Of a stretch of 64,000 nt of DNA, positions 28,819 to 46,416 are shown in pieces (within the stretch, counting starts at the first letter, position 1; each line of letters begins with the position of its first letter). The stretch is from Promethearchaeota archaeon (lineage in GTDB: Archaea; Asgardarchaeota; Lokiarchaeia; Sigyniarchaeales; SOKP01): NCBI GenBank assembly GCA_048941185.1, contig JBHLNW010000003.1, forward strand, positions 31,238-95,237, read 5' to 3'. Under the pieces are notes generated by a model. That model had not been told where the DNA came from, did no database searches, and worked only from the letters and a program-made list of their open reading frames with translations. A program made the translations under genes and the position numbers.

Positions 28819-30039
28819 TCAATCGTGAAAATATTTAATAAGAAATAAAAGTTCAATTCCCAATCCTATTATGCTAAATATAAATGGAACAATATAATGA
28901 ATATATTCCACAATCAATCCTCCAATAATCCCAGTAGGAATTAAACCAATACCTCTAAAAAATGAAATAATGCCATAAGCTTCAGATTTTTGATTTTCCC
29001 CCAAATTAGTTAAAATTATTTGTTCGGCAGGTATAAATGTACAAACAGATAAAGCAAGTAGTACATAACCAACACTTAATGTAAAAATCAATGTGTACCT
29101 AATAAAATTCATCCAGAGAATAACAGATAATATATTCATAATAAAAAAACCGAACCCAAAGAATTGACTCAAAATTAATGTCTTTTTATTCCCAATTTTA
29201 TCAGTAATATGACCTGCAGGAATTTGAAATATGGCATTTCCAATATTAAACCATAATACTATGAAAGCTATATCTTCTTTTGTAAGATTGTAATAATCAT
29301 ATAATCCACCAGAATAGATTGAGAGAGAGAGACTATAAACGAAAATATCTAATGTAAAGAAAATTAAAATTGACCTTAAGGTCTTTGTTTTAAAAATCTT
29401 TAACCACATATTTTCCTTTTTATTAAATTTATCATTTACCTGCTTTTTTTGATTGAAATTTTGATTATTTTGAGCTGATAGAAAAAATGTAAAGAAAATT
29501 TCTTCAACAAGCAATAAAATAATAAAAATAAATAAATAAAATCTAGATTCAAGTCCTTGTCCAAGAATTATAAAGAATGTTCCTGCGATTGTGCCTCCAA
29601 AATAGGCAAAAAACATAAATCCAAATGTAAGTCCTTTAGATTTATTAGTATTTTCAGCAGTTAGAAATTGAGCGTTCAAATTATTAATAATAAAACCTAA
29701 AAAGTAAAATATTATCCCAAAAAGAATAAAATATACACTGGTTGGAGTTGCTAATATTAAAAATGATAATCCTAAGATATATATTGGAATGCTAGAAATA
29801 AGGATATACTTTCGATTAAATTTGTCAGAAAATTTTCCAATCAAGGGCATTGGCATAAATTGCATTATTGATCCTATTGAAATAAAGAGCCCTGTTAATA
29901 CTATGGAATTAGTAAGTTCTAATAGAAATGGTTGGTAAATAACTGCAAATATACCAGTCCCAAATCCATGAATTAATTTAGTAATAGCTATTGTTATTAG
30001 ATTCTTACGTTTAATTTTATCTAAAATTTGAGGGTTCAT
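28819..30039 (-). CDS. MFS transporter
   Basis: About 12 TM helices; GKFSDKFNRK and GHITDKIGNK motif A loops. Confidence 0.9.
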   Translation of the reverse strand: MNPQILDKIKRKNLITIAITKLIHGFGTGIFAVIYQPFLLELTNSIVLTGLFISIGSIMQFMPMPLIGKFSDKFNRKYILISSIPIYILGLSFLILATPTSVYFILFGIIFYFLGFIINNLNAQFLTAENTNKSKGLTFGFMFFAYFGGTIAGTFFIILGQGLESRFYLFIFIILLLVEEIFFTFFLSAQNNQNFNQKKQVNDKFNKKENMWLKIFKTKTLRSILIFFTLDIFVYSLSLSIYSGGLYDYYNLTKEDIAFIVLWFNIGNAIFQIPAGHITDKIGNKKTLILSQFFGFGFFIMNILSVILWMNFIRYTLIFTLSVGYVLLALSVCTFIPAEQIILTNLGENQKSEAYGIISFFRGIGLIPTGIIGGLIVEYIHYIVPFIFSIIGLGIELLFLIKYFHD

Positions 30040-30129
30040 TATATTTCTAATCGGGATATTATTATAATATACATTATAATAAATGGAAAATTTGGAATCA
30101 AAATAAAGTTTATATAGGTATTCTGATGC

Positions 30130-30501
30130 TTAATCTTCTTTTTTTTTCTTCATTTTTTTCAAATTATTTAATGCTATTAGATATCTTTTATTCTTTTTTG
30201 CTCTCTTTTCTAACCCCTTGCAAGGAAAATCTTGGCATTGGTAACAGTATTCTAATTTTCTATCATTTATACAACAAGATCTTATCCAGCATTCTTTAGT
30301 CCAACATTCTAATAGATGTCTCCTACAAGTGCTACAATGAAAGTCTTCTGGTTTTACATTATCCCACATCTTATCAAAGATTTTAACTAATCTTTCGGCA
30401 ATCTTAGGGTTATTTGGAGCTTGATATATTTTACATTGAGCGCAATCTATTCCGCACACAGAAATTATAAGTTTTGCTTGAGTAATCTTTCCTTTATTCA
30501 T
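30130..30501 (-). CDS. DUF3795-family Cys-rich protein
   Basis: SVCGIDCAQC...CSTCR...CWIRSCC...YCYQCQDFPC. Confidence 0.8.
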   Translation of the reverse strand: MNKGKITQAKLIISVCGIDCAQCKIYQAPNNPKIAERLVKIFDKMWDNVKPEDFHCSTCRRHLLECWTKECWIRSCCINDRKLEYCYQCQDFPCKGLEKRAKKNKRYLIALNNLKKMKKKKED

Positions 30502-30904
30502 GACCTTGAATATCTTTTCTTTTAATAAAAATTTAATCGAAGTTAGATTAAAGTGTCCTGATATAAAGGTAAATTTAGATCTTACTTTTAAATAGAATCA
30601 ATTTTTATAATGAAAAAACCATATTAACCTAATCTAGAGGTTTGATTTTCAAAATTTCTTCTCTTTCTTTTCCTTTTATATTTCGAATCGAATATAGTGT
30701 TATTGTAGAGGAAACTCCTTTTTTTCAGAAAGCTTTTACATAATTTAAGACTTTTTCTTTATTTTTATCAACCATATTGTCTTTAAGTGCCCTTCCAAAT
30801 GCTTTTCTTATTAGAGCTTATTTTTCCCAAATTAAATTATTATGCTATAAAATCTTTCTATATTCATTTTATTACATTTTTTAATAGAACTTTAAGAATT
30901 ATTT

Positions 30905-31438
30905 TTAATATTCAATTCCATATCGAGCTGTAATACCTTTTGAGGAGTAATAATGCTTAATCATTCTCATCTCGGTTACTAAATCAGCTAACTCTTTAAT
31001 TTTAGGATGCATTTGAGGCCCACCTGTTAAGATTAGCTCAACCTTTTCTGGTCTATTTTTAATGAGTTCTAGTACAGGTTCGACAGGTATTACATTCATA
31101 GATATTGCAACTCCAACTTCATCAAGAATCACGATGTCATATTCATCACTCATTACAATTTCTTTTGCGAAATCTAGAGCTTTTTTACCTTCTTTTAGAT
31201 CAAATTCTCCTGGCTCAGCTATAAGATCTGGGCTCCCAAATTGCTTTAGTTCAAAATTGGGTATTTTTTTAATTGCTTCAATCTCACCGTATTTGTAATT
31301 ACCTTTCATGAATTGAATCATAAATACCTTGAATCCATGCCCCGTAGCACGTATTCCTTGTCCTATGGCAGCAGTTGTTTTACCCTTCCCTCGTCCAAAA
31401 TAAACTTGAACTAATCCCTGTTTTAATCTCTTTCTAAT
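30905..31438 (-). CDS. cobO: Cob(I)yrinic acid a,c-diamide adenosyltransferase (CobO/BtuR); probable ATT start
   Basis: The track ORF (IQFMKG, ILDE, ELILTG, ADLVTEM..IKH, GIEY) lacks the P-loop. The frame continues upstream as IRKRLKQGLVQVYFGRGKGKTTAA to an ATT after GAGGT, with an in-frame TAA just upstream. Confidence 0.9.
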   Translation of the reverse strand: MRKRLKQGLVQVYFGRGKGKTTAAIGQGIRATGHGFKVFMIQFMKGNYKYGEIEAIKKIPNFELKQFGSPDLIAEPGEFDLKEGKKALDFAKEIVMSDEYDIVILDEVGVAISMNVIPVEPVLELIKNRPEKVELILTGGPQMHPKIKELADLVTEMRMIKHYYSSKGITARYGIEY

Positions 31439-31667
31439 GGTGAATTACCTCTACTAATTTATGATAATATATATTTAAAAAAAATGACAATAATATTATT
31501 TGATTCTTATAAGTTAGGATGTTAAGAATAAACATTTAATTACTATTTAATGCTACTATTATTCGTAGCAATCCAAATAATAAAATTAAATTTATATAAA
31601 ATTGGAGTGAAAAATCACTTCTAAATTAAATTATCTAAATTAATAATAAATAAAGGAGTGAAGAAAT

Positions 31668-31994
31668 ATGCCTATGGTTATAATACATACTCAATGGCCT
31701 CATAGCGAAGCTGAAGCAGTTGGGAAGGCTTATCTTGAAGTCATGAAGAAATATCCTGTAGATAAGTCCCTCTATAAAGCAGCTGTACCTTCATGTGTCA
31801 AAGCGACTAAGAAAGGTTTTAAGGCTCTTGCTGTGGATGATGTGAAAGAAGGAAAACTTCAGGAAACTTTAGATTTGGTATACAGACGGATGCTTATGTT
31901 TGGAAATCTTGTCAAAAATCTCAAGTATGAAATTGAGGTTTTCATGTCTGGAGTAGAGGCAATGCCAATGATAGGGCTTAAAATGCCAGAATAA
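31668..31994 (+). CDS. Small alpha/beta hypothetical protein
   Basis: Strong SD (AAGGAGTG) before the ATG; 108 aa; no confident family. Confidence 0.7.
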   Translation: MPMVIIHTQWPHSEAEAVGKAYLEVMKKYPVDKSLYKAAVPSCVKATKKGFKALAVDDVKEGKLQETLDLVYRRMLMFGNLVKNLKYEIEVFMSGVEAMPMIGLKMPE

Positions 31995-32207
31995 GTAAAA
32001 TGAGAAAATAATTTTTAAAATAATTTTTTTTCTAATTTCTATAAAGTTATATTAATTAATCCTAACCTTTTCCAACTTTAAATAAGATGCTGAATTTAAT
32101 CTTTTCATTCTATTTAATTTGTAATAAAAATCTATTTCGCTTAAAAATTAATCTAATATAATTATAGAATTATTCCTAAATTTATTTAAATTTATTATAA
32201 TTTCAAG

Positions 32208-32684
32208 TTAAAATTCTTTCATATTATAGATTTCATTATTTATTTTAATAAGACCTAATCGACCTGCTGAAAAAACTATAAATAAATCAAGGATCATCAA
32301 AAAAGGGATAGGAAAGATAATAATAAACAAATTATCTCCATGTTCATTCAGAATAAATATTCTAGGTATAGATAATACTAAAGTAAATAATTCACTAAAT
32401 GCACCACTCAAAATGAACCATTTTTTGTTATAGTTATATTTTCCAATAATTAGTAGGAAAACATATATTACAAATATAAGTCTGAAAACACAAAAATCAA
32501 AATAGTACTGAAATGCACTGAAAAATCTTATTGAATACCATGCAGGGCTAAGAGGAACTTCCCATATCATTGAAACAATACTGTTTGGTCCTTGTGGAGC
32601 AAGATCTATCATGATACCAAACGGAAGGAAAAAAACTACTAGAATGGTTAAAATACCAATCATAATTGATATATGTCTTTTCAT
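32208..32684 (-). CDS. Hypothetical membrane protein (about 4 TM)
   Basis: Hydrophobic segments throughout. Confidence 0.6.
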   Translation of the reverse strand: MKRHISIMIGILTILVVFFLPFGIMIDLAPQGPNSIVSMIWEVPLSPAWYSIRFFSAFQYYFDFCVFRLIFVIYVFLLIIGKYNYNKKWFILSGAFSELFTLVLSIPRIFILNEHGDNLFIIIFPIPFLMILDLFIVFSAGRLGLIKINNEIYNMKEF

Positions 32685-32741
32685 GAGACTATTCCCTATA
32701 ATGTACTTTTGTTTTCAATATTGTTTTATTTTTATATAATT

Positions 32742-33200
32742 CTATTTTTTACTTTTATACAATCCAACTATTTCAGCTGACATAATAGCGTGATCTTCCA
32801 TTTCTTCGTAGAAAGTCTTCCTATTGACACCCTTTAATTTATCAACATCTAACGCATATATCTTGAATACATATCTGTGTGTCCCACTTGGCGGTGAAGG
32901 TCCACCATAACCAGTTTTTCCAAAGTCCGTTTGCAACTGATCGCCCGGGATTGGGCCTCCTTGAGGGATTTCATTAATATGTTTTGGAATATTCACAACA
33001 AGCCAATGAATCCAATCACCTGCAGGCGCATCTGGATCATTACAGGAAATAGCAAAACTTTTAGTGTTCGGTGGTACCTTCTCCCATTTCAAATGAGGTG
33101 ATTTATTTCCTCCGCGTAATGAAAATTTACTATCTAATAATTGATCATGTTTAAAATCATTACTTGTTACTTTCACATAGGCAATAAGGATTAGTTTCAT
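32742..33200 (-). CDS. YbhB/YbcL (PEBP/Raf kinase inhibitor-like) protein
   Basis: NKSPHLKW, DPDAP, WIHWLVVNIP, GYGGPSPP, HRYVFKIYALD. The real start may be the GTG of VKVTSNDF. Confidence 0.92.
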   Translation of the reverse strand: MKLILIAYVKVTSNDFKHDQLLDSKFSLRGGNKSPHLKWEKVPPNTKSFAISCNDPDAPAGDWIHWLVVNIPKHINEIPQGGPIPGDQLQTDFGKTGYGGPSPPSGTHRYVFKIYALDVDKLKGVNRKTFYEEMEDHAIMSAEIVGLYKSKK

Positions 33201-33342
33201 ATTTAATTATTTGTTCTTATAATTGAATTTAATCAAAAAGCCAACTTATCCCATTGAATTCTGGATTTTATACACAATAATTTTATTTATAAAATTCATA
33301 TGGATCAATTAAGATTCAAATTAGAGAAAGAGGACTTTAAAA

Positions 33343-34713
33343 TTGAAGAGTTTTTTAGAAATTTATTCAACAAATACCAAAACAGGGTTTCAAATAGAAT
33401 TTCAAGGAGTTCAATATTCTAATATTTATGGAAAAAAAATTTGGAATTTAACACCCAATCAAACTTGTGAAGCCTTAAAGGATAATCTGGTTCTCGCAAC
33501 TACCATGCATTTACCTTTGATATACAATAGAAATAAAATTATATATTATTCAGGAAGACCTTTGCTAGAACCCTATTTTTTACAAAATTTTTTGAAGGAT
33601 ATTCCTTCTTGTACTGAAGTTGATGGTCTCAGTACTGATGAAATTATTTATAAATTTTTAAATACAGAATTTCAATTTATTAATCCAGAAATAGTGGTTC
33701 CCTCTGATAGACCTGTAGAAGGGGCATATAAAGCTTTAATAGGGATGAGTTTTGGGAAGGATAGCCTTTTAACTTATGCTGTTGCAGATGAGCTTGATTT
33801 GAAACCTGAAATGATATATGTTGTAGAACAAAGTTTAACATATGAAGAAAAACATAAAAAAAATTTAGCGACCGAGTTTAAAAAAGAATTCGCAAAGGAG
33901 TTGCATATCCTTACTCATGAAACAGGAAAATTAAGGGATTATAATTATTTAAAATTACCAAAATCTGAATTTGGGTGGGGTTTACAAAATACAGAATATG
34001 CACTTGAATTTATTCCTTTTGCATATGCATTCAATGGAAAATATATCTTTTTCGGCAATGAACAAACAACAGCGGCTTCTTATATGGATAGTTCAAATAG
34101 ATGGTTAATTTATCCCGCTTATGACCAATCACATCTATGGACAGTTCATATAAATCAAATAACTCAAATTTTCTCAAATCATTCAGTAAATACTGGAAGT
34201 TTAATTGAACCGCTAATGGATATGATGATACAGCGTATTCTTGTAAATCGTTACCCTGCAATTGCAAAATATCAAATGAGCTGTTTTACCGAAAATGAGT
34301 ATGGTAAAGATTATCATTGGTGTCACCATTGTTCTGTTTGTGCTAAAATGTATTTATTATGTGTTGGTAGTGGCATAGATCCTAAACTAATTGGATTAAA
34401 AAATAATATGCTCAAAAAAGAATTTAAAGAGCTTTATACTTTATTTGGAGGTAAGTCAAATCTCACATATGCTAATACAGAAATAGCTAGGGATGAACAA
34501 TTATTTGCTTTTTATAGTGCTACTAAAAAGGGAGTTAAAGGAGATTTAATTGATGAATTTAAGAAAGAAGGTTTATTTCAAGAAGCCAAAAGCCGAGAAG
34601 ATGAGCTTTTCACTAAATTTTGCTCCATTTATGAACCAATTTCACTTCCTAAAGAATTAAAGAATGAAGTTATGTCAATTTATAAGGAGGAAATATCACT
34701 TTTTGAATTATAA
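33343..34713 (+). CDS. PP-loop (adenine nucleotide alpha hydrolase-like) ATPase resembling MurL/QueC-type adenylating enzymes
   Basis: ALIGMSFGKDS (SGGKDS PP-loop), IFFGNE, SLIEPL, YQMSCF and WCHHCSVC occur in the same order as the MurL motifs (GGKDS, SNE, SLLRPL, SC, WCxxCxKC). GAGGA precedes the TTG start. Confidence 0.7.
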   Translation: MKSFLEIYSTNTKTGFQIEFQGVQYSNIYGKKIWNLTPNQTCEALKDNLVLATTMHLPLIYNRNKIIYYSGRPLLEPYFLQNFLKDIPSCTEVDGLSTDEIIYKFLNTEFQFINPEIVVPSDRPVEGAYKALIGMSFGKDSLLTYAVADELDLKPEMIYVVEQSLTYEEKHKKNLATEFKKEFAKELHILTHETGKLRDYNYLKLPKSEFGWGLQNTEYALEFIPFAYAFNGKYIFFGNEQTTAASYMDSSNRWLIYPAYDQSHLWTVHINQITQIFSNHSVNTGSLIEPLMDMMIQRILVNRYPAIAKYQMSCFTENEYGKDYHWCHHCSVCAKMYLLCVGSGIDPKLIGLKNNMLKKEFKELYTLFGGKSNLTYANTEIARDEQLFAFYSATKKGVKGDLIDEFKKEGLFQEAKSREDELFTKFCSIYEPISLPKELKNEVMSIYKEEISLFEL

Positions 34714-34780
34714 AATTTACTATTAAATAGATCCTAAATCTTTTATTATTAGTCTTGTTTATTTAATATTTGAAAATAAA

Positions 34781-35779
34781 ATGAAGATAGCAGTTATATT
34801 AAATACGAGAAGAGAAGATTCCGAATTCCAAATCGAATATGATCCTCCTCATACAATCCAATTAATAAAACATGGTATTGAAGAAATTGGTCATAATTAT
34901 GAATTTATTGAAGCTGATGAAAATGTTTTGGAAAATCTGAAAAAAGTTAAACCGGATTTGGTCTTCAACAGATCAGAAGGAATCAGAGGAGAAAGTCGAG
35001 AATCTCACATACCAGCAATGTTGGAGATGTTAAATATCCCCTATGTGGGTTCTAATGTGCTGACAACAGCTATAGGTTTGAATAAAACATGGGCAAAAAA
35101 GTGTTTAGCATATCATAAAATTTTAACTCCTAAATTTATTACAGTTTCAGATGTTAAAGATATTATCAATCTTGATATACCATTCCCCGTTATTTTAAAG
35201 CCAAATGAAGAAGGTTCTTCAATGGGGATAAATGAAGATAATGTTGTTTTTGATATTGATAATTTAAAAATTAAACTTAAAACTTTATTAAATAATTATC
35301 AACAATCGATTTTAGTTGAACAATTTATTCAGGGCCGTGAATTCAGTGTAGGATTATTAGGAAAACCTGGTGAAGATCCTGAAATATTATCAATTCTAGA
35401 AATAGATTATTCAAAACTACCTAAGGAAATTGGAAACATATTTGGGCAGAGAGCAAAAACCATGTATGATTCATTAGATCACTATATCTGTCCAGCTAAA
35501 ATTCTAAAAGACTTAAAGAAAAGACTGAAGATTATTTCAATAAACATTTATAAATATTTAGATATAAGAGATTTTGGGCGAATTGACTTTAGAATGAATA
35601 CTAAAAATCAAATTTACTTTCTGGAGATTAATCCACTTCCAGGTATGGATTTCGATCTTGATAACAATGATTTTTCATTTTATCCATATATGGCAATGAA
35701 GTCTGGATATAGCTATGATCAATTAATTCAACGCATTCTAGAATCTGCTTGTTATCGCTATGGTCTTAATTTATATTAA
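34781..35779 (+). CDS. D-Ala-D-Ala ligase-like ATP-grasp amide ligase
   Basis: PDLVFN..EG, LEMLNIPYVGS, PVILKPNEEGSSMGI, LVEQFIQGREFSV, RIDFR, FLEINPLPGM. Confidence 0.88.
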   Translation: MKIAVILNTRREDSEFQIEYDPPHTIQLIKHGIEEIGHNYEFIEADENVLENLKKVKPDLVFNRSEGIRGESRESHIPAMLEMLNIPYVGSNVLTTAIGLNKTWAKKCLAYHKILTPKFITVSDVKDIINLDIPFPVILKPNEEGSSMGINEDNVVFDIDNLKIKLKTLLNNYQQSILVEQFIQGREFSVGLLGKPGEDPEILSILEIDYSKLPKEIGNIFGQRAKTMYDSLDHYICPAKILKDLKKRLKIISINIYKYLDIRDFGRIDFRMNTKNQIYFLEINPLPGMDFDLDNNDFSFYPYMAMKSGYSYDQLIQRILESACYRYGLNLY

Positions 35780-35812
35780 TTAAAAAAATTATAATATAAT
35801 TTCGAACAATTC

Positions 35813-36349
35813 ATGAATTTAAAATTAAATCCATTAAATTTGAAAAGAAGTAATTCTATTTGGAGATCTCTAGAAAGGGAATTGAATAAAAAATTGAATG
35901 CTTCAATAAAATTAGTTTTTCCTGAATTTTGGAATAATAAATATTATGATTGGTTCCAAGAAATTGAAAAAATAGCCTTTAGAGAAGAGTTAAGATACTC
36001 ATTCAAAGAAATAGAAAAAAGATTACACAATGATAATATAGTTTTTTTATATCTTTTAGTTAATAATAAACTTGAAGCTACCCTATTAGGATATCTATTC
36101 CCTGATGAGACCAAACAAACATTTTTTCTCGATACTATTGCAGTCAAGAATTATGGCAAAGGGATTGGTTTTTTAATTTTAAAATGGTTCATTAAATGGT
36201 TGAAAAAAGAGAAATATAAGTTTTTGCGGGTAGAGACTGAAGAAATTGATGAAAAAAAAATTTTATTATATAATTTTTATAAAAATTTAGGATTTAACCT
36301 TAAAGAAAGAAATGATAATGGAAATTTGACGATGCTATTACGATTATAA
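35813..36349 (+). CDS. GNAT-family N-acetyltransferase
   Basis: FFLDTIAVKNYGKGIG (motif A) and NFYKNLGF (motif B). Confidence 0.8.
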   Translation: MNLKLNPLNLKRSNSIWRSLERELNKKLNASIKLVFPEFWNNKYYDWFQEIEKIAFREELRYSFKEIEKRLHNDNIVFLYLLVNNKLEATLLGYLFPDETKQTFFLDTIAVKNYGKGIGFLILKWFIKWLKKEKYKFLRVETEEIDEKKILLYNFYKNLGFNLKERNDNGNLTMLLRL

Positions 36350-36402
36350 CTTGATTCGTTTAATATTGATATTAATTAAAATTGAAATAAAAAAATCATG
36401 AA

Positions 36403-37362
36403 TTACTTAAAGTCTCTCCCAGTTAAAATTGCTACATAATTCCCTTTTAAAATAACCGCCCCTCTCTTTAGATTTGAAAGAACTGCTAAAGTACTTGTAG
36501 CAGCAGGTAAGGCATTTAAACCTTGTTCTTCTCTTAAAATTCGAGAAAACTCAATCATTTTCGAATCAGAAGCATAATCAGCAAACCCTTTTGATTCATA
36601 TATCGCATCTAAAGCTTCTTGACCATCATATGAATGCCAATTTGTTAAAGGTTCATTAACCTTACTTTCCCTAATTTCATCTGGAGCAAGATCTAGGACT
36701 ACTTTAGTATTTAATTTAAATGATTTAATTATAGGATTTCCTTTTTTGGTGCTTGTAGCTATTATTTTAGGTATTTTTGATATTTTTCCATCTTCGAATA
36801 GTTTTTTAAAGCCTCTATGAATTCCTGTTATGGTAGTTCCATTCCCTACTGGGCAAAAAACATAATCGGGGGCTCTTCTTAAGCTTCTATATAGTTCTAA
36901 GGAGATTTTAGTGTAAGCAAGAAACGAACGATCTTTTACTCTGGGTACACCTGGATTTGCATTATAATAGTCTTTATTTTCTGCAATTTCAGAGGAGTAA
37001 CTAACAGCATCCTCATAATGGCCGTCAATATAATGAATATGAGCATTAGCTTGATACAAGTAGTTTATTCTATTTTTCGAGGGATGATAATTTGTTGGTA
37101 TAAAAACATGAGTCTCTAATCCAAAATTTTTTGCTACATATGCTAATGCCGCCCCAAAATTACCACATGTGGCAGTTGTTATAACTTTATAATTATTTTT
37201 AACAGCATCTTCAATTAAAGCCAATGCAATTCGATCTTTTTGAGTTCCAGTTGGATTACTACCTTCAAATTTTAAATATAATCTTTCACATCCTAATAAA
37301 TTAGCTAGGTTTTTTGCCTCTGTAAATGTTGTATTTCCTATTAACTTCTTCAGTTCAAACAT
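36403..37362 (-). CDS. PLP-dependent fold-type II enzyme, threonine synthase-like (TCGN variant)
   Basis: LYLKFEGSNPTGTQKDR (PLP lysine), ATCGNFG, PVGNGTT, VAILTG. Confidence 0.85.
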   Translation of the reverse strand: MFELKKLIGNTTFTEAKNLANLLGCERLYLKFEGSNPTGTQKDRIALALIEDAVKNNYKVITTATCGNFGAALAYVAKNFGLETHVFIPTNYHPSKNRINYLYQANAHIHYIDGHYEDAVSYSSEIAENKDYYNANPGVPRVKDRSFLAYTKISLELYRSLRRAPDYVFCPVGNGTTITGIHRGFKKLFEDGKISKIPKIIATSTKKGNPIIKSFKLNTKVVLDLAPDEIRESKVNEPLTNWHSYDGQEALDAIYESKGFADYASDSKMIEFSRILREEQGLNALPAATSTLAVLSNLKRGAVILKGNYVAILTGRDFK

Positions 37363-37459
37363 TTTTTAAGGCTAACAACCACCAATCGAGTATATATCTT
37401 TTAATAACATAAAAAGTAGTATTATATCTTAATATTTTTGATTTAGTATTTATTTCGAT

Positions 37460-38698
37460 TTAAAGGTATTCTTTTCTAATTTTAGATTTTAATGCGAAAA
37501 ATACTATTAAAATTCCAAATATCAGATAAAGAAAATTCATATTGACCATAACTAACATTCCTATTAATGGATACAAAATTGCTTTTAAAACTCCTGATAT
37601 TACATTAATAGTGCTTAAAATTGTAGCCCTGTTATGTTCTTTAATCTGTTTATTAATTCCATTAGTAAATATTATATATCTTGATAATCCTAACCCAATT
37701 ACTATTAAGAATAGAAAGATAATTGCTGGAGCAAAATTAATTATAGCAATCAAAATATATCCTATCCCAGGAATAATAGTATTTATGAAAAGTAATTTCT
37801 TTTTATCCATATTGTTAGTTGTTAAATGTGGAATTAAATTTAAAAACATAAAGTGTGAAAGGGTTAAACCAGCGTCAATAAATCCAAAGTATAATACAGG
37901 AATACTGAATTCGAGAAGAATGTAATATTGATAAGTATACACTAGAAAAATTATAATTATTTCAATTATTATCTTTTCAAATACTAAAATCTTAAGAATT
38001 TTGTTCTTCCAAAGCAGGTGAAATCCTGATTTTAAAATGTGAGAAATTTTTTTTTCAGGATCGTTTATTCTGCTAGTTTTATGAATAGTAAAAGTAATGA
38101 ATAAGCAAATGAAATAAGGTATAATCATAATTAAAACTACTACTCTAATTGAAATTAAATTTGCAATAATCGAACCTAATGGTGCTGATATAATGATCCC
38201 TAATAAAAACATTCCATCATTTTTAGCAACAGTTTTCATAATTAGGTTTTCCTTTTCCATCTTTTTCAAATTTTCGTATACTATCGCTTCATTAGTTCCC
38301 GAAATTAAAGCATTACTAAATGCAAATAAGGTTTCTCCTACAAAGAAAAGTAGTTTATTTAAAGCTATTCCATATACAAAGGGAATTAAAAGATAAGATA
38401 TGCCTGCTAACATTAGAGCAAATTTCTTACTAATTCGATCGGCTATTATACCACATGGAATTTCTAATATAATTACAATTATTGCATAATAACTTTGTAG
38501 CAACATAAATTCAAAAAAAGTAAATCCACCATAAATTATGTAAAAAGGGATCAAAATCCCTGAAATAAGAGAAAATCCGATAAAGAAATTAAAGAAGTAT
38601 AATTTAATGATATTTGATTTATATTTCGATCTTTGAACCTTGTCCTTATTAATTATTAATAGTCTATTTTCAACATTATTTTCATGGACTAAGCTCAT
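37460..38698 (-). CDS. MFS transporter (probable exporter)
   Basis: LEIPCGIIADRISKK, SGTNEAIVYE, RATILS; about 12 TM helices; GGGTGA SD. Confidence 0.88.
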   Translation of the reverse strand: MSLVHENNVENRLLIINKDKVQRSKYKSNIIKLYFFNFFIGFSLISGILIPFYIIYGGFTFFEFMLLQSYYAIIVIILEIPCGIIADRISKKFALMLAGISYLLIPFVYGIALNKLLFFVGETLFAFSNALISGTNEAIVYENLKKMEKENLIMKTVAKNDGMFLLGIIISAPLGSIIANLISIRVVVLIMIIPYFICLFITFTIHKTSRINDPEKKISHILKSGFHLLWKNKILKILVFEKIIIEIIIIFLVYTYQYYILLEFSIPVLYFGFIDAGLTLSHFMFLNLIPHLTTNNMDKKKLLFINTIIPGIGYILIAIINFAPAIIFLFLIVIGLGLSRYIIFTNGINKQIKEHNRATILSTINVISGVLKAILYPLIGMLVMVNMNFLYLIFGILIVFFALKSKIRKEYL

Positions 38699-38818
38699 TT
38701 AGATCACCCTTAAACCAATTCAATTATCCAATTTTATTTCTTTACGTTTTGGCTTACCTTCTTTTTTTTAAATTAAATATAATTACTATTATTAGTATGA
38801 AATCTCCATTATGTTGAG

Positions 38819-38961
38819 ATTTCTGAGTTAGATTAGAACTTTTTACTTCCTATTAGCAATTCTATATGGGAGAATGTAAAAAGTCATAAACCTTTGAATT
38901 TTGAAACTTAAAGTCATATATTACTCATTTTAGGCGTCTTATCATAATCTAACTGAGAAAT
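38819..38961. repeat. 17-bp inverted repeat pair (1 mismatch) enclosing two AAAGTCATA direct repeats
   Basis: ATTTCTGAGTTAGATTA (38819-38835) versus TAATCTAACTGAGAAAT (38945-38961); AAAGTCATA occurs at about 38880 and 38910. Confidence 0.6.
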
Positions 38962-39779
38962 TGTAGACTCAAGAAAGCTATAATATCCAATAATTACCCT
39001 AACCGATATTATTATCCTCGAGATATTCCAGATCATTTGAAGACTCACCTAAATTATACTTTTATAATATACTAACTATTAGTAATAATATACCTAATTA
39101 ATAAATTAAAGAAATTGCAGATATTTAAATTTTTGTATTTTAACTACAATTTAGAGCTCTTTAAATTTCGAATGGCGCTTTTCAAACTATTAAATCTGAG
39201 GTTAGCCACTTTTATAAATTAAAGGGAGGTTAGATTTATAATTGTTATCCTAATTTTGTTTAAATTAGTATAAGCTCGACAATATTGAATTAAGGATATG
39301 ATTATATCTCAAAATTCGAAAAAGGCTTTTAATTTAATTAAAAATCTTCTAAATTATTAGTTTGGCTTTAAACCAAATTATGGAAGAATTAGAGCCAAAA
39401 CTAGAGAGAGTAAGATATAAACGGAAAATAAGTAAATGAAACTGATTCATAAATCCAAATTTGAAATGAGTCTATAGATATAAAAACCTTATTTCATAAA
39501 GAATGACATCATTATAGCTTTATTATGTGATTTGGATTTGTCTATGAGACTTATACTTTGAGTTCAGCTGTGTTTTATTTTCTAATGATGAATTAGCTTC
39601 AAGAATTTAGTTTAATAAGCAATTGTGAAAATAAGATAAATATTTGCTAAAATGTGAAGATAAAGATTTAAAAACTATTTAACTCAACTATTATTCATAA
39701 TAAATTATAAAATTTGTCGAGTCTTGTTACTACAGAACTCCGTTGTATTAAGAAAGATCAAAAATAATTCACTTTAAGA

Positions 39780-39790
39780 TTATATATAAA
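39780..39790 (+). promoter_or_regulatory. Probable TATA box for the DUF169/CoA-transferase operon (leaderless transcript)
   Basis: TTATATATAAA about 25 nt upstream of the ATG at 39807, with no SD in between. The background is AT-rich, so this is weak. Confidence 0.35.
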
Positions 39791-39806
39791 AATATTGGTA
39801 ATTTTC

Positions 39807-40574
39807 ATGGGTAAATTTGAGATTTTAGATAATCAACTAAATAAATATTTGAGATTGGCAACTTTTCCAGTTGCTGTTAAATTAATTCAGGATACAAAAG
39901 AAGTAGAAAACATGAAATTTCTTAAAAGACCTGAAAATAAAGTAGTGATCTGCCAGATTTTTAGTTACTCAAGGTATTATGGTTGGACAATGCTTTGTAC
40001 TAAAGAAGATAATTTATGCCCACTTGCAGGGATTTCAGTAGGATTTGAAGAATCTTATAAGTTATTTGAAGAAGGTGCTTTTTTTATAGGTAGATATAAT
40101 AAAACTAAGGAAGCTGCCAAAAAAACTGCGGCAACTATCCCTAAAATTCCATTTGGGAAATATAATGCTATTTTATCAGGAGCATTACATCGAGTTGACT
40201 TTAAACCTGATTTAATTCTAATATGGGCCAATTCTGCTCAAATAATGAGAATAATTCAAGGTTATTTATGGAAAAAAGGAGGAAGGGTTTCAATGTCTAC
40301 TTTCTGTGATGGTGTATGCGCAGATACAATATCAAGTGCGATGATCACTGGTGAATTACAAATTGCTTTCCCATGTTTAGGTGATCGTCGTTATGGAAAT
40401 GCTATGGATAGTGATTTAATAGCATCAATACCAATTGGAATTATTGATGAAATTATAGAAGGTATGGCAGAAACACATAAAGCAGGTACTAGATATCCGA
40501 TACCTTATCAAATTTCTGCTCCAGAATATTTTATAGAATTGAAAAAGCAATTAGATAAAGCAAAAAAGAACTAA
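39807..40574 (+). CDS. DUF169-family protein
   Basis: L.LATFPVAVKL, ICQ...SR.YGW, D.LCP, PDLILIW.N.AQIMR, CAD, PCLGDRRY. The ATG at 39807 is preferred over TTG 39795. Confidence 0.85.
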   Translation: MGKFEILDNQLNKYLRLATFPVAVKLIQDTKEVENMKFLKRPENKVVICQIFSYSRYYGWTMLCTKEDNLCPLAGISVGFEESYKLFEEGAFFIGRYNKTKEAAKKTAATIPKIPFGKYNAILSGALHRVDFKPDLILIWANSAQIMRIIQGYLWKKGGRVSMSTFCDGVCADTISSAMITGELQIAFPCLGDRRYGNAMDSDLIASIPIGIIDEIIEGMAETHKAGTRYPIPYQISAPEYFIELKKQLDKAKKN

Positions 40575-40657
40575 ATTTTGAAAGTTTTTTATGGCAAAAT
40601 TAACTGATTATATTGCAGCAAAAGAAAATTAAAATAGAAAAAGTGAGGGGATAATAA

Positions 40658-41518
40658 ATTAGATCAAGTAAATTAATGCCTTTAGAAGAAGCTATTTCAA
40701 GTTATGTTAATGATGGAGATCTTGTAGGATTTGGTGGTTTATCTTTTTGGAGAAAACCAATTAGTGCTTGTAGAGAGATAATTAGACAAGAAAAAAAAGA
40801 TTTGATATTATGTACATTTGTAGGTGGAATAGAAATAGATATGCTCATAGCTGGGAATTGTGCCTTAGAAGTAAGAAGTTGTTTTGTAGGGATGGAAATT
40901 TTTGGGATGGCTCCACACTTCAGAAAAGCTGTAGAATCTGGTTTGATTAAAATATCTGAAGAAAGCGAAGCAACAATTGCTTTAGGATTAAGAGCATCTT
41001 ATTTAAAAGTTCCTTTTATGCCTTTAAAAGGAATCATTGGAACAGATATGCCTAAAGTAAGGAATGATATTAAACAAATTGTTGATCCTCTTGGTTCAGG
41101 AACTCAAGTTATGGCAGTACCAAAGATAGATTTAGACGTTGCAATAATTCATGTGCCTTACGCTGATGAATTTGGGAATGGTAATATTGCTGGAGCAGTA
41201 TGGATGGATGCTGATATGGCAAAAACTGCAAAAAAGACAATTATTGTATGTGAAAAAGTAGTAGAAACAGAAGATATCCGCTATTTGCCAGGAAAAGCAC
41301 AATTACCAATCCAAACTACAAGTGCAGTTGTTAAAATGCCTTTTGGGGCTCATCCAACCTCATGCTATCCGATTTATACATTTGATCCTTTGCATATTCA
41401 ATGTTATTTAAAAACTAGTTTTGAAGAATATAAGAAGAAATTCATAATAGACAAAACACCAACTCAATATTTAGAGGAAGTAGGTGGAATTCAAACTATT
41501 TTTAATATTTTATTATAG
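40658..41518 (+). CDS. Family I CoA-transferase-like alpha subunit (GctA/IpdA-like)
   Basis: (SK)LMPLEEAI..V.DGD.VGFGG, GLRA...VPFMP, DVAIIHVPYADEFGN, PFGAHPTSC. The start is either ATT 40658 (SD-spaced) or ATG 40676. Confidence 0.85.
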   Translation: MRSSKLMPLEEAISSYVNDGDLVGFGGLSFWRKPISACREIIRQEKKDLILCTFVGGIEIDMLIAGNCALEVRSCFVGMEIFGMAPHFRKAVESGLIKISEESEATIALGLRASYLKVPFMPLKGIIGTDMPKVRNDIKQIVDPLGSGTQVMAVPKIDLDVAIIHVPYADEFGNGNIAGAVWMDADMAKTAKKTIIVCEKVVETEDIRYLPGKAQLPIQTTSAVVKMPFGAHPTSCYPIYTFDPLHIQCYLKTSFEEYKKKFIIDKTPTQYLEEVGGIQTIFNILL

Positions 41519-41530
41519 GAGGGAAATAAT

Positions 41531-42409
41531 ATGAGTGAATATTCGAAGGATTATACTGTTGATGAAATAATGACTGTCCTAATGTCAAGGGAAGTCAGAA
41601 ATGATGATGTGATGATCGTTGGAGTTGCCACACCAATGGTATGGGCAGCTTTCACATTGGCAAAGCTAAATCATGCACCTGATGCGATATATCATTACAT
41701 TATGGGAAATACTTTTGTGATGGAACCTCGACAAGTGTCTTTACTATATCTTGAAATGAATACTGCAAGAGCTTATCGGTTTCAAGATAGCGTAGAATGT
41801 ACTTTAGAATCCCTTCCATCAGAAAAATTAACTACTATAGAATTCTTCAGACCAGCACAGATTGATCAATATGGAAACAGTAATAATATCTGCATAGGAG
41901 ATTGGAATAATCCAAAAATAAGGCTTCCTGGAGCCGCAGGTATATTTGATTTTAGCATGTTCTATTCTCGTGGCTCTTTTCTTTATACACCCAGACATGA
42001 TAAAAGAACATTTGTGCCAACAGAAAAATTGTCTTTCATTTCTGGTGTTGGATTTCCTGGGGGAAAGCCCTCAATATGTGGTGGTTCAGGCCCACAATGC
42101 GTCATTACCAATCTTGCTTATTTAGATTTTGATGAAAAAACAAAAAAGATGAGATTAAATTCAATCTATCCTGGTATTGAACTTGAAACTGTAAAGAATT
42201 CAACAGGATTCGATTTGGTAATACCTAAAAATTTATTAGAGACTATGCCTCCTACTAAAGAAGAACTTGATTTATTAAGGAATAAGGTTGATCCATTAAG
42301 TATAAGAAAATTAGAAGTATTATCTGGCAAAGAACGTGAAGATTTATTAAATGAAATCATCCAAAAGGAATTGATTATGGAAAATAAATTTCCCAAATTA
42401 TTAATCTAA
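41531..42409 (+). CDS. Family I CoA-transferase-like beta subunit (GctB/IpdB-like)
   Basis: YTVDEIM..., AQIDQYGNSN, RLPGAAG, VITNLA, MRL.SI.PG....V...TGF, PPT.EEL.LLR..VDP; GGAGG SD. Confidence 0.88.
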   Translation: MSEYSKDYTVDEIMTVLMSREVRNDDVMIVGVATPMVWAAFTLAKLNHAPDAIYHYIMGNTFVMEPRQVSLLYLEMNTARAYRFQDSVECTLESLPSEKLTTIEFFRPAQIDQYGNSNNICIGDWNNPKIRLPGAAGIFDFSMFYSRGSFLYTPRHDKRTFVPTEKLSFISGVGFPGGKPSICGGSGPQCVITNLAYLDFDEKTKKMRLNSIYPGIELETVKNSTGFDLVIPKNLLETMPPTKEELDLLRNKVDPLSIRKLEVLSGKEREDLLNEIIQKELIMENKFPKLLI

Positions 42410-45500: not shown

Positions 45501-46416
45501 AGAGGAAGAAACTAAGGGTGTTGAGAGGAAAAGTGCTCAGAGGAAATATAAAATTATTTATAAAGATCTATTAAAAGAATATCCAAAAATCCAAAGCAGA
45601 GAATGTAGAATTGGAATTGCTCAAATAGGGATTTCAAAAACTGGTGATCTTCTAAATGACTTATATGAAGTGAAATCTACAGGTCTTTTAGGTATTAAAG
45701 ATGAAAAAATAGAATATGTTAAATCAATAGTAAAAAAAATAATTAAAAAAGCGAATAAGAGTAATGTAGATGTTTTAATCTTTCCTGAAATGACTATTGA
45801 TCTAAATTACATGGATTTTCTAGAGGATTTATCAAATTTATCTAAAATTCATAGCATGTATATTATTCCTGGATCTTACCACGACACAGCGACATATAGA
45901 AATATTAGCATGGTAATTGGACCAGAAGGGATCCTCTGGGAACAAGAAAAACATATACCTGCTATAATGCATATTAACGGAAATAAAATTAAAGAAGCAA
46001 TAAAGGGAAATTCTCTACCTAAAAAGACAATAGTGTGCAATACAGAGTTTGGTAGAATTGTTATAGTTATATGTCGCGATTTCCTGGATATGGATTTGAG
46101 AGTGGAATTGAAAAATTTTGAACCACCAGTGGATATTGTAATTAATCCGGCATTCACTCCTGTTACTGCTGATTTTAAAGCAGCTCATTTTGATGCACGC
46201 AGATCTATCTATGCATATTGCTTCTTTGCAAATGTTGCTGAATTTGGAGATTCACTAATTTATACTCCTGAAAAAGATCGTACTGAAAGGAGAATTCCTG
46301 CAAAACAAGAGGGTCTAATATTTAAAGATATTGATCTCTTCAAATTGCGCTCTGAACGAAAAAAATGGGAAAAGAAACAGAAGAATGAAACAAAATTCAT
46401 TCAAAGTACAAGATAG
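42571..46416 (+). CDS. Large TPR/SNAP-like helical-repeat protein fused to a C-terminal carbon-nitrogen hydrolase (nitrilase-fold) domain
   Basis: About 950 aa of A/Y/L-patterned helical repeats, then IGIAQI, VLIFPEM (Glu), QEKHIP (Lys), VICRDF (Cys), INPAFT: an intact E-K-C triad. Confidence 0.85.
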   Translation: MMGESEDILLEKAKFEEKTYNWKEAAVVYEKLVKEYTRANLLDKAAVLYKRLGFVNSQAADTVGTTEQYISLKSKATMKYREAGNLFKSIGIKAEELECYGEALYEEGCTSTSINTGEKEFKNSLEFFIQASELFSNKGDEEGFTRNIIRSAMCMHNLMKYAKNPKELENIIDDGTDYAEKAWKFSKKLNRLNYLIDSLYAMINISIHNCFLEEMPTFYNLDQGKTLAFDFKKWFNRAKMAFELTKDQSNLKIHGIINFILGFLYFYYGFFLAENIREQNHYIEEGLILCEKGLDFIRKTKDNGIITLIIFWLNWCAVIGGRINYVQKRIIQDIKEIKEAGKVYSNLFSFWNFYSNFLPALYYTNIAQRSFFGPEQREFYAKEALNYAKASHNNIAFKPFSVWAYQILTWSYSQLVYLAKNEEDRSKYAKSMVEDAENANKVASEYEKGFSRTSGYSALYRSFKTLADVAQNKENKIKMLRSAVDAADNYLDHPVESRTGFIAAKIRLGLLYEELGIISNEKSYLIKAKEVYLNAIEDSLNRGHISYAAASHEYIARIEDRLGNYKASAEYYDKAQKDYQESLSFIEYKLLKDRIHEKKNYSLAWKLIENAKAYHKKEDHSEAKKFYEEANELLSGLSKYNYEAPYYFAWTLLEEAELLSKQENHNKAIMQYEHTKMNFYEAITLLESTLDKTKEKLEIERIKKLAKVARVRMNYCSARINLEKARLLEKQGDNLAAAENFATAASIFKNLWDVFKTESERVELKAIYYLCRAWETMALAEKYEDSKRFAQASDLFKNASGIFIESKLKLLASGNSSFCKALELGCKFDKSLEMEFKEGLYPKVKILLRAAASSYRKGGFESGADWALATSIYFDAAWYIIKADMETSLEEKKKLLEIASKLLKSASELFEKADYKHKKNEVLDRLESLKKEDKIIVSALNTIKKPSMSSSTLGIIAPACPSETSSPSKLSEIRQFTEEETKGVERKSAQRKYKIIYKDLLKEYPKIQSRECRIGIAQIGISKTGDLLNDLYEVKSTGLLGIKDEKIEYVKSIVKKIIKKANKSNVDVLIFPEMTIDLNYMDFLEDLSNLSKIHSMYIIPGSYHDTATYRNISMVIGPEGILWEQEKHIPAIMHINGNKIKEAIKGNSLPKKTIVCNTEFGRIVIVICRDFLDMDLRVELKNFEPPVDIVINPAFTPVTADFKAAHFDARRSIYAYCFFANVAEFGDSLIYTPEKDRTERRIPAKQEGLIFKDIDLFKLRSERKKWEKKQKNETKFIQSTR

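Follow-up and report, generated by a model that had tools for sequence, protein, structure and literature searches.

The 64,000-nucleotide window analysed here, a stretch of a contig from a Promethearchaeota archaeon, contains a conserved cassette of four genes, encoding a MurL-like enzyme, a Ddl-type ATP-grasp ligase, a GNAT acyltransferase and a PRK06381-type PLP enzyme. The reading we prefer, tentatively and with slightly less than even confidence, is that of a horizontally spread biosynthetic cassette leading to a small N-acylated dipeptide-like metabolite, to which a small ORF and an efflux-type MFS transporter were added in the lineage of the window. The product would probably be N-acetylated and dipeptide-like, and possibly D-configured, every chemical step being one that we infer. 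The five ORFs proposed in the first-pass annotation were found to be real, with exactly the positions and strands given there, so that three genes on the plus strand converge on two on the minus strand, and the gaps between these five genes are of 33–97 nt.

Synteny was counted over 84 loci, which belong to related lineages and are non-independent samples, with the loci testable for each gene as denominators. The ATP-grasp gene immediately follows the MurL-like gene in 63/64 loci, while the GNAT is present in 56/57 and the PLP enzyme in 37/38. Among 400 genomes of the phylum the MurL-like gene is present in 39 and the PRK06381-type PLP gene in 36 (both, 35; MurL-like alone, 4; PLP alone, 1; neither, 360), the former being found in only 3/53 genomes of the organism's own genus. 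In some bacteria the cassette is a tight operon: in MAGs of Spirochaetales and Rickettsiales the order is PALP, MurL-like, ATP-grasp and GNAT, with junctions that overlap or are approximately 20 nt apart. The expected co-occurrence of the families in archaea and bacteria was thus borne out, but the five-gene unit originally proposed is reduced to four genes conserved together, the MFS orthologue being present in only 5/40 testable loci. Partner genes are absent from some members: one locus lacks the PLP gene (L110), one has no detectable GNAT (L112), one MurL-like member (G509, locus L130) has none of the three partner genes within 5.5 kb and another (G688, locus L129) has an AMP-binding enzyme as neighbour. 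The GNAT family of the window also takes in the small ORFs of variant loci.

The first gene (33343–34713, plus strand, TTG start) encodes a protein of 456 residues with no Pfam or NCBIfam match of its own at E ≤ 0.01, NF041275 (MurL) included. The likeness to MurL noted at first pass emerged, at the family level, as remote homology. The family comprises 525 near-length relatives (295 representatives at 50% identity); 55/78 members match NF041275 at E ≤ 0.01 (best, 3.3e-12), and hhalign comparison with 12 alphaproteobacterial MurL-type proteins gave a profile-profile probability of 99.25% and an E value of 5.1e-20 over 300 columns, at 15% identity, a span that takes in the C-terminal domain beyond the P-loop and leaves the first approximately 125 residues unaligned. 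The nearest ESM Atlas clusters also carry the name MurL. The family and MurL have in common the PP-loop with its GKDS sequence, E240, S286, S313 and four Cys residues in a C-x12/14-C-x2-C-x2-C arrangement. The PP-loop motif and the Cys cluster had both been recognized earlier, and both are conserved across the 78-sequence family alignment. In the SFGKDS motif (residues 136–141; 33748–33765, plus strand), which aligns with GGGKDS of MurL and SGGKDS of TtuA, conservation is complete at G138 and at least 96% at K139 and S141. The residues of the C314-x12-C327-x2-C330-x2-C333 cluster (34282–34341, plus strand) are invariant or 99% conserved, and are also found in 12/12 MurL-type sequences; they probably form a metal site, which we take to bind Zn by likeness to QueC. 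Only PP-loop enzymes were matched by the family profile in the PDB, with alignments over SFGKDS (TtuA, E 0.017), and no tie to a tRNA or cofactor enzyme, a possibility raised at the outset, was found past the shared P-loop. A single-sequence structure model of the protein has a pLDDT of 34.8, too low for the model to be of use. In the literature on MurL, the enzyme is described as converting ATP to AMP while carrying out a one-way L to D inversion of the C-terminal residue on an N-acyl amino acid (PMC5808125, PMC8788868). The MurL-like enzyme is predicted to be likewise an adenylating enzyme producing AMP from ATP, and would have a C-terminal epimerase role.

Of the 111 columns with a conservation of at least 90% among MurL-type proteins, only 13 are kept in the MurL-like family and 98 are lost; what is kept amounts in essence to the nucleotide-binding loop, one Glu, two Ser and the metal site. 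Because of this, and of the unaligned N-terminal region, the features by which MurL epimerises may be absent here, and an amide-forming or amidating role of the PP-loop enzyme has to be considered a serious rival, although we judge it unlikely. The pathway would be of the same kind with no epimerase: the PP-loop enzyme would adenylate a carboxylate and then form an amide, whether with ammonia, through a second ligation or through cyclisation, and the product would be the amide of an N-acetyl dipeptide, or else a cyclic or tripartite amide, resembling N-acetylglutaminylglutamine amide (NAGGN). Many PP-loop enzymes form amides after adenylation, and the NAGGN osmolyte is made by a GNAT/ATP-grasp protein and an Asn-synthetase-like PP-loop enzyme (Ngg and AsnO), so that three of the four cassette families correspond to the three activities of that pathway; an osmolyte was already among the products first envisaged, together with a surface modification. 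Matches to the amidotransferase WbuX in 2/78 members (best, 5.8e-08), and weak ones to TilS and GuaA in others, point in the same direction. However, among the named matches MurL far exceeds the others in both number and strength, the homology extends into the C-terminal domain, neither a glutaminase domain nor a glutaminase partner is found in the cassette, and the DgcN-like fusion and enolase-type epimerase-like neighbours found in variant loci (see below) point to stereochemistry and not to amidation.

More generally, the small gene sets for NAGGN and D-cycloserine combine an acyltransferase and an ATP-grasp enzyme with a PP-loop enzyme (NAGGN) or with a fold-II PLP enzyme and a racemase (D-cycloserine), and each yields a modified amino acid or dipeptide and comes with an exporter. 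The cassette differs from both in that its members do not belong to these sets at the sequence level, its PP-loop enzyme is of the MurL type, it lacks the glutaminase domain, and no arginase or hydroxylase is found in the window.

The ATP-grasp ligase (34781–35779, plus strand; 332 residues) matches PF07478 at 5.7e-35, and its PDB matches are all Ddl or Van enzymes (1e-15 to 1e-23; best, Ddl at approximately 1e-22), with which it shares the fold and the catalytic residues. K102, K140, S146, S147, R267, D269, E282, N284 and G288 are kept in 64/64 orthologues, and the enzyme looks catalytically intact as judged from its sequence. In contrast to Ddl and Van ligases, it stays under every NCBIfam Ddl/Van cut-off (for NF002378, 181 bits with a cut-off of 243), has a 6-residue insertion ahead of the conserved Ser and contains additional conserved Arg residues (R10, R69, R271). 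Furthermore, H63 and Y216 of DdlB are replaced by E66 (64/64) and T227 (60/64). By these sequence criteria it is not a Ddl. In the preferred reading it would join two amino-acid units through an acyl-phosphate, yielding an N-acyl amino acid whose C-terminal carboxylate is left free, while the GNAT (35813–36349, plus strand; 178 residues; PF00583 at 1.4e-5, 25.8 bits with a cut-off of 20.7) would acetylate the free amine.

The PLP enzyme (36403–37362, minus strand; 319 residues; PF00291 at 1.7e-53) is where the possibility that the genes are unrelated neighbours, the PLP gene being simply the threonine synthase of the organism, can be weighed. NF004996, which it matches with 372.8 bits (cut-off, 266), is indeed named ‘threonine synthase’, and the best PDB matches are ThrC structures (2zsj, 7.5e-34). 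Lys42 (codon 37237–37239, minus strand), the predicted Schiff-base lysine, aligns with Lys61 of Thermus thermophilus ThrC and is kept in 59/59 orthologues; the ThrC/cysteate synthase branch shares this lysine as well as the ‘asparagine loop’ Asn. However, the score against TIGR00260 (thrC) is 87.3 bits, below the 167.1 cut-off, and the N-terminal approximately 30 residues of ThrC are missing. Alignment to 1uim shows that T88, S155 and R160 of ThrC, which we take to be its phosphate-binding positions, are replaced by F (F69, 53/59), P (59/59) and mostly E or G (R in 6/59). The ‘atypical TCGN’ motif pointed out earlier (T65-C66-G67-N68; 37159–37170, minus strand), where ThrC has S-T-G-N, is real and family-wide, C66-G67-N68 being present in 59/59 orthologues. 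A better ThrC candidate of 477 residues is encoded on another contig, C166 (PRK05638, 338 bits; TIGR00260, 163 bits), NF004996 is above cut-off in 0/14 model genomes, and the PRK06381-type gene is almost confined to genomes with the MurL-like gene. A housekeeping ThrC, the identity that the first-pass annotation had named as fatal to its proposal, is thereby ruled out, and the unrelated-neighbours explanation, contradicted also by the synteny and co-occurrence counts, is barely credible. In the cassette as we read it, the enzyme would use a beta/gamma replacement or an elimination, other than the ThrC reaction, to make or tailor a non-standard amino acid.

Variant loci speak for the preferred reading in that they tie the cassette to N-acyl and D-amino-acid chemistry. 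The MurL-like core of Spirochaetota carries a fused DgcN-like N-acetyltransferase domain, its neighbours being a PRK06381-type PLP enzyme and an L-Ala-D/L-Glu epimerase-like (DgcA-like) enzyme, and one Asgard variant cassette has an inserted NAAAR/OSBS-type enolase and a D-aminopeptidase-like protein. In the N-succinyl-amino-acid racemase route, N-acylation is followed by inversion, and the DgcN/DgcA route for D-Glu similarly acylates the amino acid before inversion at the alpha-carbon. Both differ from the cassette in being catabolic, with enolase-superfamily racemases, an ATP-free inversion and no ligase, and no DUF1611 gene was found in the genome of the window. Nevertheless, these genes, the presence of many deaminases among fold-II PLP enzymes (including NCBIfam matches of the one studied here) and the sediment habitat of the archaeal hosts could suggest salvage or catabolism, in which D-amino acids or D-containing dipeptides of the sediment detritus would be taken up and irreversibly returned to usable L forms through N-acylation and ATP-driven inversion, after the logic of these two routes, with the PLP enzyme as a deaminase and the MFS protein as an importer. 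PMC12363236, where dgcN is described as the central gene in a route that irreversibly racemises D-acidic amino acids, is in keeping with this possibility. We consider it distinctly improbable: the ATP-spending amide ligase, the most constant partner (63/64), would have no role, the conserved core of the loci compared contains no deacylase or peptidase, and the known MurL works from L to D only (PMC5808125). An amidohydrolase adjoining one cassette turned out to be the unrelated FwdA.

A modification of macromolecules, with residues at a protein terminus being added, inverted and acetylated by RimK/RimI/TTL-like activities or a tRNA base being modified by TtuA/QueC-like ones, seems very unlikely. 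Hints of it are the sole NCBIfam match of the GNAT, to RimI, a weak TTL match of one bacterial ATP-grasp orthologue, the tRNA thiolases among the PDB profile matches, and the 60–88% identity of the MurL-like protein across Asgard lineages, which would fit a conserved substrate. These matches are, however, weak and limited to generic motifs (E 0.017 for TtuA; 19.5 bits for RimI with a cut-off of 86.4). A housekeeping modification is hard to square with the patchy spread of the gene (39/400 genomes), the core with its short intergenic gaps has no conserved neighbour that could encode a substrate, and the 40-codon ORF described below is restricted to the MFS-bearing lineage.

The MFS transporter (37460–38698, minus strand, as the PLP gene; 412 residues) matches PF07690 at 9.2e-22 (77.9 bits) and, weakly, efflux MFS families of NCBIfam. 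Given its rarity next to the cassette, it is a lineage-specific addition, and export a feature of the window's lineage, where it would carry the product out of the cell. Upstream of it, the 1.1-kb stretch described as non-coding (38699–39794) indeed contains neither an ORF longer than 44 residues nor a tRNA and has no Rfam match at E ≤ 1, but it is not featureless. Its MFS-proximal approximately 760 nt are 70–77% identical in four related contigs (L037, L039, L038 and L001), and within them a 40-codon ORF (38914–39036, minus strand), preceded by GGTG and with no Pfam match, is open and of equal length in 5/5 aligned sequences.

Among the closest known systems is the pairing of MurD2 with MurL in the alternative peptidoglycan route of Xanthomonas, Micromonospora, Salinispora and some Alphaproteobacteria, in which a ligase adding an L-amino acid is likewise found beside a PP-loop-type enzyme of approximately 450 residues. 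True MurL-type genes have an adjacent MurD-like gene in 11/11 testable loci, and the MurL-like genes their ATP-grasp neighbour, so that the recurring pair consists of a ligase and then a MurL-type enzyme. In the cassette, however, the ligase is of the Ddl type and no Mur ligase, and the GNAT and the ThrC-like PLP enzyme are obligatory. The absence of other mur genes, first remarked for the window, holds genome-wide: Mur_ligase_M has no match across the whole 97%-complete genome, while 12/14 control genomes match in the same search. The host is presumably without murein, and a UDP-MurNAc peptide cannot be the substrate of the MurL-like enzyme. Carried by an Asgard archaeon that has no ligases for cell-wall peptides, the cassette includes a distant relative of MurL, the epimerase of bacterial walls.

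The five ORFs that the first-pass annotation had placed at 33343-38698 are present with the coordinates given there. Three plus-strand ORFs, namely that of the MurL-like PP-loop protein (ORF1; 33343-34713, 456 aa), that of an ATP-grasp protein (34781-35779, 332 aa; PF07478, 5.7e-35) and that of a GNAT (35813-36349, 178 aa; PF00583, 25.8 bits, above the cut-off of 20.7), converge on two minus-strand ORFs encoding a PLP enzyme (36403-37362, 319 aa; PF00291, 1.7e-53) and an MFS protein (37460-38698, 412 aa; PF07690, 77.9 bits, above the cut-off of 33.4). The intergenic gaps are 67, 33, 53 and 97 nt, and the GC content (0.23-0.33) is the same as that of the flanks. The locus found no match in a plasmid collection. 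The observation of the locus is real and the arrangement is conserved, as detailed below for the four-gene cassette formed by the ORF1, ATP-grasp, GNAT and PLP genes.

ORF1 matched no Pfam or NCBIfam family at E ≤ 0.01 and, as a single sequence, no homologous chain in the PDB. Relatives of near-equal length are numerous (525 found). The best 120 of them are 60-100% identical and, where their source is named, come from Thor-, Hermod-, Odin-, Hod- and 'Prometh'-archaeota and from one Bathyarchaeota (MCG) genome, being annotated as hypothetical throughout. An exhaustive search extended the family to 295 representatives at 50% identity, reaching approximately 25% identity. In an alignment of 78 members, G138, P225, C314, C327, C330 and C333 are invariant and K139, S141, E240, Q262, S286, S313 and W326 nearly so, a pattern that corresponds to a PP-loop, SFGKDS (residues 136-141), and a C-x12-C-x2-C-x2-C cluster. 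The loop aligns with those of TtuA, MJ0690 and MurL, and the profile of the alignment retrieved from the PDB only PP-loop tRNA thiolases, aligned at the loop (E 0.017). As judged from a loop of the SGGxDS type, ORF1 thus appears to carry the signature of the PP-loop ATP pyrophosphatase superfamily. A single-sequence AlphaFold model of ORF1 was unusable (pLDDT 34.8, pTM 0.24), and no MurL-type structure has apparently been deposited in the PDB. In Aravind 2010 (PMC2922099) the string 'MurL' occurs only as part of 'Mur_ligase', with nothing on the ORF1 family.

Passages of two reviews describe MurL as an unprecedented ATP-dependent, one-way peptide epimerase without known mechanism, in which no conserved domain was recognized, and give the authors' proposal that the α-carboxylate is adenylated (PMC5808125, PMC8788868). 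The NCBIfam equivalog model for MurL, NF041275, has a curated cut-off of 700 bits. ORF1 itself did not match it at E ≤ 0.01; members of its family did in 10 of 17 and then in 55 of 78 cases (best E 3.3e-12), all of them far under the cut-off, and WbuX was also matched by two of the 78. The profile comparison with MurL that the first-pass annotation had called for was carried out with hhalign against 12 alphaproteobacterial MurL-type proteins, and aligned the two families over 300 columns with a probability of 99.25% (E 5.1e-20, 15% identity). On ORF1 the alignment spans residues 125-440, with about 125 residues at the N-terminus staying outside it. The nearest ESM Atlas clusters are also MurL-named (score 0.97 by features) and bear PF26299 (MurL_N) and PF26298 (MurL_epimerase_C; Pfam 38.1). 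The family matches and the hhalign result bear out, in the sense of remote homology, the earlier description of ORF1 as a MurL-like PP-loop ATPase with a Cys cluster. The likeness does not extend to membership of the MurL family: the MurL set has 111 columns with a conservation of 90% or more, and only 13 of them are kept, namely GKDS, E240, S286, S313, C314, W326, C327, C330, C333 and P436. The MurL-type activity proposed for ORF1 would be an ATP-dependent, AMP-forming, one-way L-to-D epimerization of a C-terminal residue.

This poor retention of MurL-specific residues fits the main rival explanation, according to which the pathway would be the same and the PP-loop enzyme would form an amide or amidate its substrate rather than epimerize it. 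A parallel with the route to the osmolyte NAGGN, which combines GNAT, ATP-grasp and PP-loop activities, fits it as well.

The genomic setting also separates the two families. MurL-type genes were matched in 21 of 401 alphaproteobacterial genomes (best score, 482 bits), and a MurD-like Mur ligase adjoins the gene in all 11 testable loci, the twelfth stopping at a contig edge. True MurL-type loci thus lie beside a Mur ligase, whereas the ORF1 gene lies beside an ATP-grasp ligase. The earlier remark that no other mur genes accompany the locus can be widened from the window to the whole genome, which is 97% complete and in which no Mur_ligase_M domain was found. The combination of a MurD2-type ligase beside ORF1 with a murein pathway in the host was likewise not found.

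The co-occurrence of the partners was determined at 84 loci with an ORF1-type gene, from four species genomes and 80 metagenome contigs, the latter collected by a scan with a 12-row alignment; these loci are related, so that the counts are not independent. The ATP-grasp gene is directly downstream in 63 of the 64 loci with enough sequence, a GNAT was found in 56 of 57 testable loci (L112 has no detectable one) and the PLP gene in 37 of 38 (none in L110), being downstream and convergent in 32, upstream and co-directional in two, and upstream and divergent in three. Only 5 of 40 testable loci have an orthologue of the MFS gene of the window, and all five are of the window's close lineage. Thus, the expectation that the five families would be found together elsewhere holds for ATP-grasp, GNAT and PLP enzyme and fails for the MFS protein. 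Non-orthologous transporters recur near the cassette, such as two MFS genes in genome G307 and an MMPL gene in L003. In a single locus (L043:2348-4974) a 2.6-kb insertion separates the MurL-like and ATP-grasp genes.

Across 400 genomes of the phylum, the MurL-like gene was detected in 39 and the PRK06381-type PLP gene, above cut-off, in 36, with both in 35. Four genomes have only the MurL-like gene (one match being a distant paralogue, and two being located at the end of a contig or on a short one) and one has only the PLP gene. A merely fortuitous neighbourhood of the cassette genes is, with such counts at hand, poorly supported. Within the organism's own genus the MurL-like gene occurs in three of the 53 other genomes. 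Outside the archaea, the order PALP-MurL-like-ATP-grasp-GNAT, all co-directional, was found in Spirochaetales and Rickettsiales MAGs, with genes that overlap or nearly abut (approx. 20 nt). In a quick tree of 34 chosen loci and five MurL sequences, from which X-containing ORFs were dropped, the Spirochaetales and Rickettsiales members fall within a well-supported clade together with the main Asgard type, while two Asgard families (f28 and f13) with different gene orders are placed elsewhere. The bacterial placement, along with the patchy distribution, indicates that the cassette spread horizontally.

As for the partner enzymes, the ATP-grasp protein fell short of the two Ddl models used (NF002378, 181.1 bits, cut-off 243; TIGR01205, 160.1 bits, cut-off 245.65). 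All the residues that we take to be catalytic in E. coli DdlB (K97, K144, S150, R255, D257, E270, N272, G276 and S281) have equivalents in it, and its own catalytic set (K102, K140, S146, S147, R267, D269, E282, N284, G288 and S299) is kept in 64 of 64 orthologues. In contrast, DdlB H63, presumably at the substrate site, is replaced by E66 (64/64), and Y216, presumably of the ω-loop, by T227 (60/64). Further differences from DdlB are an insertion of six residues ahead of the conserved Ser and the additional conserved R10, R69 and R271. These features lead us to read the cassette protein as a probably active ligase whose two substrates would differ from the D-Ala/D-Ala pair and may be acidic. 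A second Ddl-type ATP-grasp domain is found in the same genome (L158:157-2088, contig C51) in a 643-aa protein in which it is fused to an N-terminal SAM-methyltransferase domain.

Two other roles may be envisaged for the cassette. Salvage of D-amino acids is the weaker rival, because the ligase would have nothing to do in it; modification of a macromolecule by the cassette enzymes is poorly supported.

The PLP enzyme belongs to the family of NF004996 ('PRK06381 threonine synthase'; 372.8 bits, cut-off 266), for which none of 14 model genomes has a protein above cut-off. It aligns with ThrC structures (2zsj, 7.5e-34), with Lys42 at the Schiff-base position. The motif described as an 'atypical TCGN' in the first-pass annotation is a genuine family trait, as the S-T-G-N-T loop of ThrC reads T/S-C-G-N-F across 59 orthologues. 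With regard to the residues that we take to bind the phosphate of O-phosphohomoserine in Thermus thermophilus ThrC (T88, N154, S155, R160 and N188), the two Asn residues are kept (N136 and N174), while T88 is replaced by F69 (53/59), S155 by P137 (59/59), and the equivalent of R160 is an Arg in only 6 of 59. If these residues do form the phosphate site, O-phosphohomoserine would not be the substrate of the PLP enzyme. That the enzyme might be the housekeeping ThrC, an outcome that would have undermined the original proposal, is contradicted by its score against TIGR00260 (thrC; 87.3 bits, cut-off 167.1) and by the presence of a better ThrC candidate on contig C166 of the same genome (477 aa; PRK05638, 338 bits; TIGR00260, 163 bits). 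The NCBIfam models nearest to the MFS protein are of efflux types, with weak scores only.

Variant neighbourhoods provide a second view of the ORF1 family. In the Spirochaetota genome G509 there is no ATP-grasp, GNAT or PLP partner gene within 5.5 kb of a full-length member (L130:8521-9972, E approx. 1e-165); this member is flanked on one side by a chemoreceptor gene and on the other by a hisA/hisH/hisB block, and has a long branch in the tree. In genome G688 (L129) a family member adjoins an AMP-binding enzyme, and in G154 (L134) a distant paralogue adjoins an enolase-superfamily gene. Ten of 301 Spirochaetota genomes were matched, seven of them by long ORFs of 865-929 aa that match the core only (profile positions approx. 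101-352). In the two that were examined (L131:8448-11024, minus strand, and L140:4935-7508, plus strand; proteins of approximately 858 aa), a DgcN-like DUF1611 domain (NF041892, 145.7 bits, under the cut-off of 480) is fused to a MurL-like core. Both lie beside a creatininase/MftE-like hydrolase and an enolase similar to L-Ala-D/L-Glu epimerase (in L131, 246 bits, under the cut-off of 500). In L140 the genes just upstream encode a PRK06381-type PLP enzyme (409.7 bits), a RimK-like ATP-grasp protein and an arginase, and in L131 the equivalent positions are taken by a glycosyltransferase gene and an unassigned ORF. The genome under study has no DUF1611 gene. The cassette of genome G059 contains an enolase of the OSBS/NAAAR type (TIGR01928, 286 bits, cut-off 200) and a β-lactamase/D-aminopeptidase-like protein. 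From these neighbourhoods, the recurrent company of the ORF1 family is of two kinds: enzymes that N-acylate an amino acid, and enzymes that racemize N-acyl amino acids or dipeptides.

Two candidates were rejected. An apparent MurL-like/ATP-grasp fusion of 803 aa in genome G364 (L135:8183-10594), at first sight evidence of the Rosetta-stone type, is an artefact of a frame-shifting run of N, beyond which the MurL-like protein has its normal C-terminus in another frame and the ligase its normal start in the frame of the apparent fusion. Such a run calls for caution in counting fusions in the family; a search for longer, fused relatives elsewhere yielded none, which is weak evidence. An Amidohydro_3 gene adjoining the cassette in genome G094, considered as a possible N-acyl-D-amino-acid deacylase, encodes subunit A of formylmethanofuran dehydrogenase (NCBIfam, 686 bits).

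The right-hand boundary, described as 1.1 kb of non-coding DNA, does lack any ORF longer than 44 aa (38699-39794), and Rfam and tRNA searches of window positions 30000-41000 gave no match; it does have conserved features, among them an ORF of 40 codons. The approximately 760 nt beside the MFS start (38699-39460) are 70-77% identical in L037, L039, L038 and L001 and include, upstream of the MFS gene, a conserved A/T-rich block resembling an archaeal promoter. The 40-codon ORF (38914-39036, minus strand) follows this block, is preceded by GGTG, is open and of equal length in five of five sequences, and found no match in Pfam. This arrangement suggests an sORF-MFS-PLP transcript in the lineage of the window, of which the short ORF may encode a leader or regulatory peptide. 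Farther out, a DUF169 gene and two CoA-transferase-family subunits (PF01144) follow co-directionally (39795-42409). In relatives the DUF169 gene is on the opposite side of the cassette, so that the flanks have been rearranged between close lineages. A 1281-aa protein (42571-46416, plus strand) has a long, helical-repeat-like N-terminal part and, at the C-terminus, a sub-threshold match to carbon-nitrogen hydrolases (21.8 versus 23.2 bits).

In the proposed mechanism, the ATP-grasp enzyme would make an N-acyl amino acid in the form of a dipeptide, the C-terminal residue of which might be provided by the PLP enzyme. The MurL-like enzyme would then adenylate the dipeptide carboxylate and invert the α-carbon, the GNAT would cap the free amine and, in the lineage of the window, the MFS protein would export the product. 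Activated N-acyl amino acids racemize readily via an oxazolone. A requirement for an N-acyl group would fit this chemistry, and the way in which ATP-grasp, Mur ligase and DgcN-like partners replace one another would be consistent with such a requirement. The cassette is a variation on a ligase-plus-MurL theme. In a tentative reading that we regard as somewhat doubtful, MurL-type chemistry would reach beyond peptidoglycan: the ORF1 family would consist of widespread ATP-driven one-way epimerases whose target is the residue at the C-terminus of N-acyl amino acids or dipeptides, with a Mur ligase, a Ddl-type ATP-grasp enzyme or a DgcN-type acyltransferase as interchangeable partners forming the N-acyl bond, and Asgard and Bathyarchaeota archaea would produce an N-acetyl dipeptide containing a D-amino acid without a racemase.

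Searches of the open-access literature returned no paper on the cassette or on archaeal relatives of MurL. Heterologous expression is realistic, since the four genes are small, encode soluble proteins and form a tight operon in bacteria. The residues common to MurL and the ORF1 family (GKDS, one Glu, two Ser and four Cys) also narrow the search for the mechanism of MurL. In hosts presumably without murein, a large sister family of MurL is tied to another ligase, together with an acetyltransferase and a PLP enzyme. If the chemistry is the same, ATP-driven peptide epimerization would be no curiosity of the cell wall but a biosynthetic tool of general use, pointing to an unknown class of metabolites in Asgard and Bathyarchaeota archaea; and, if the whole of the tentative reading were true, the cassette would be the first dedicated pathway to a D-amino-acid peptide in the archaeal relatives of eukaryotes.
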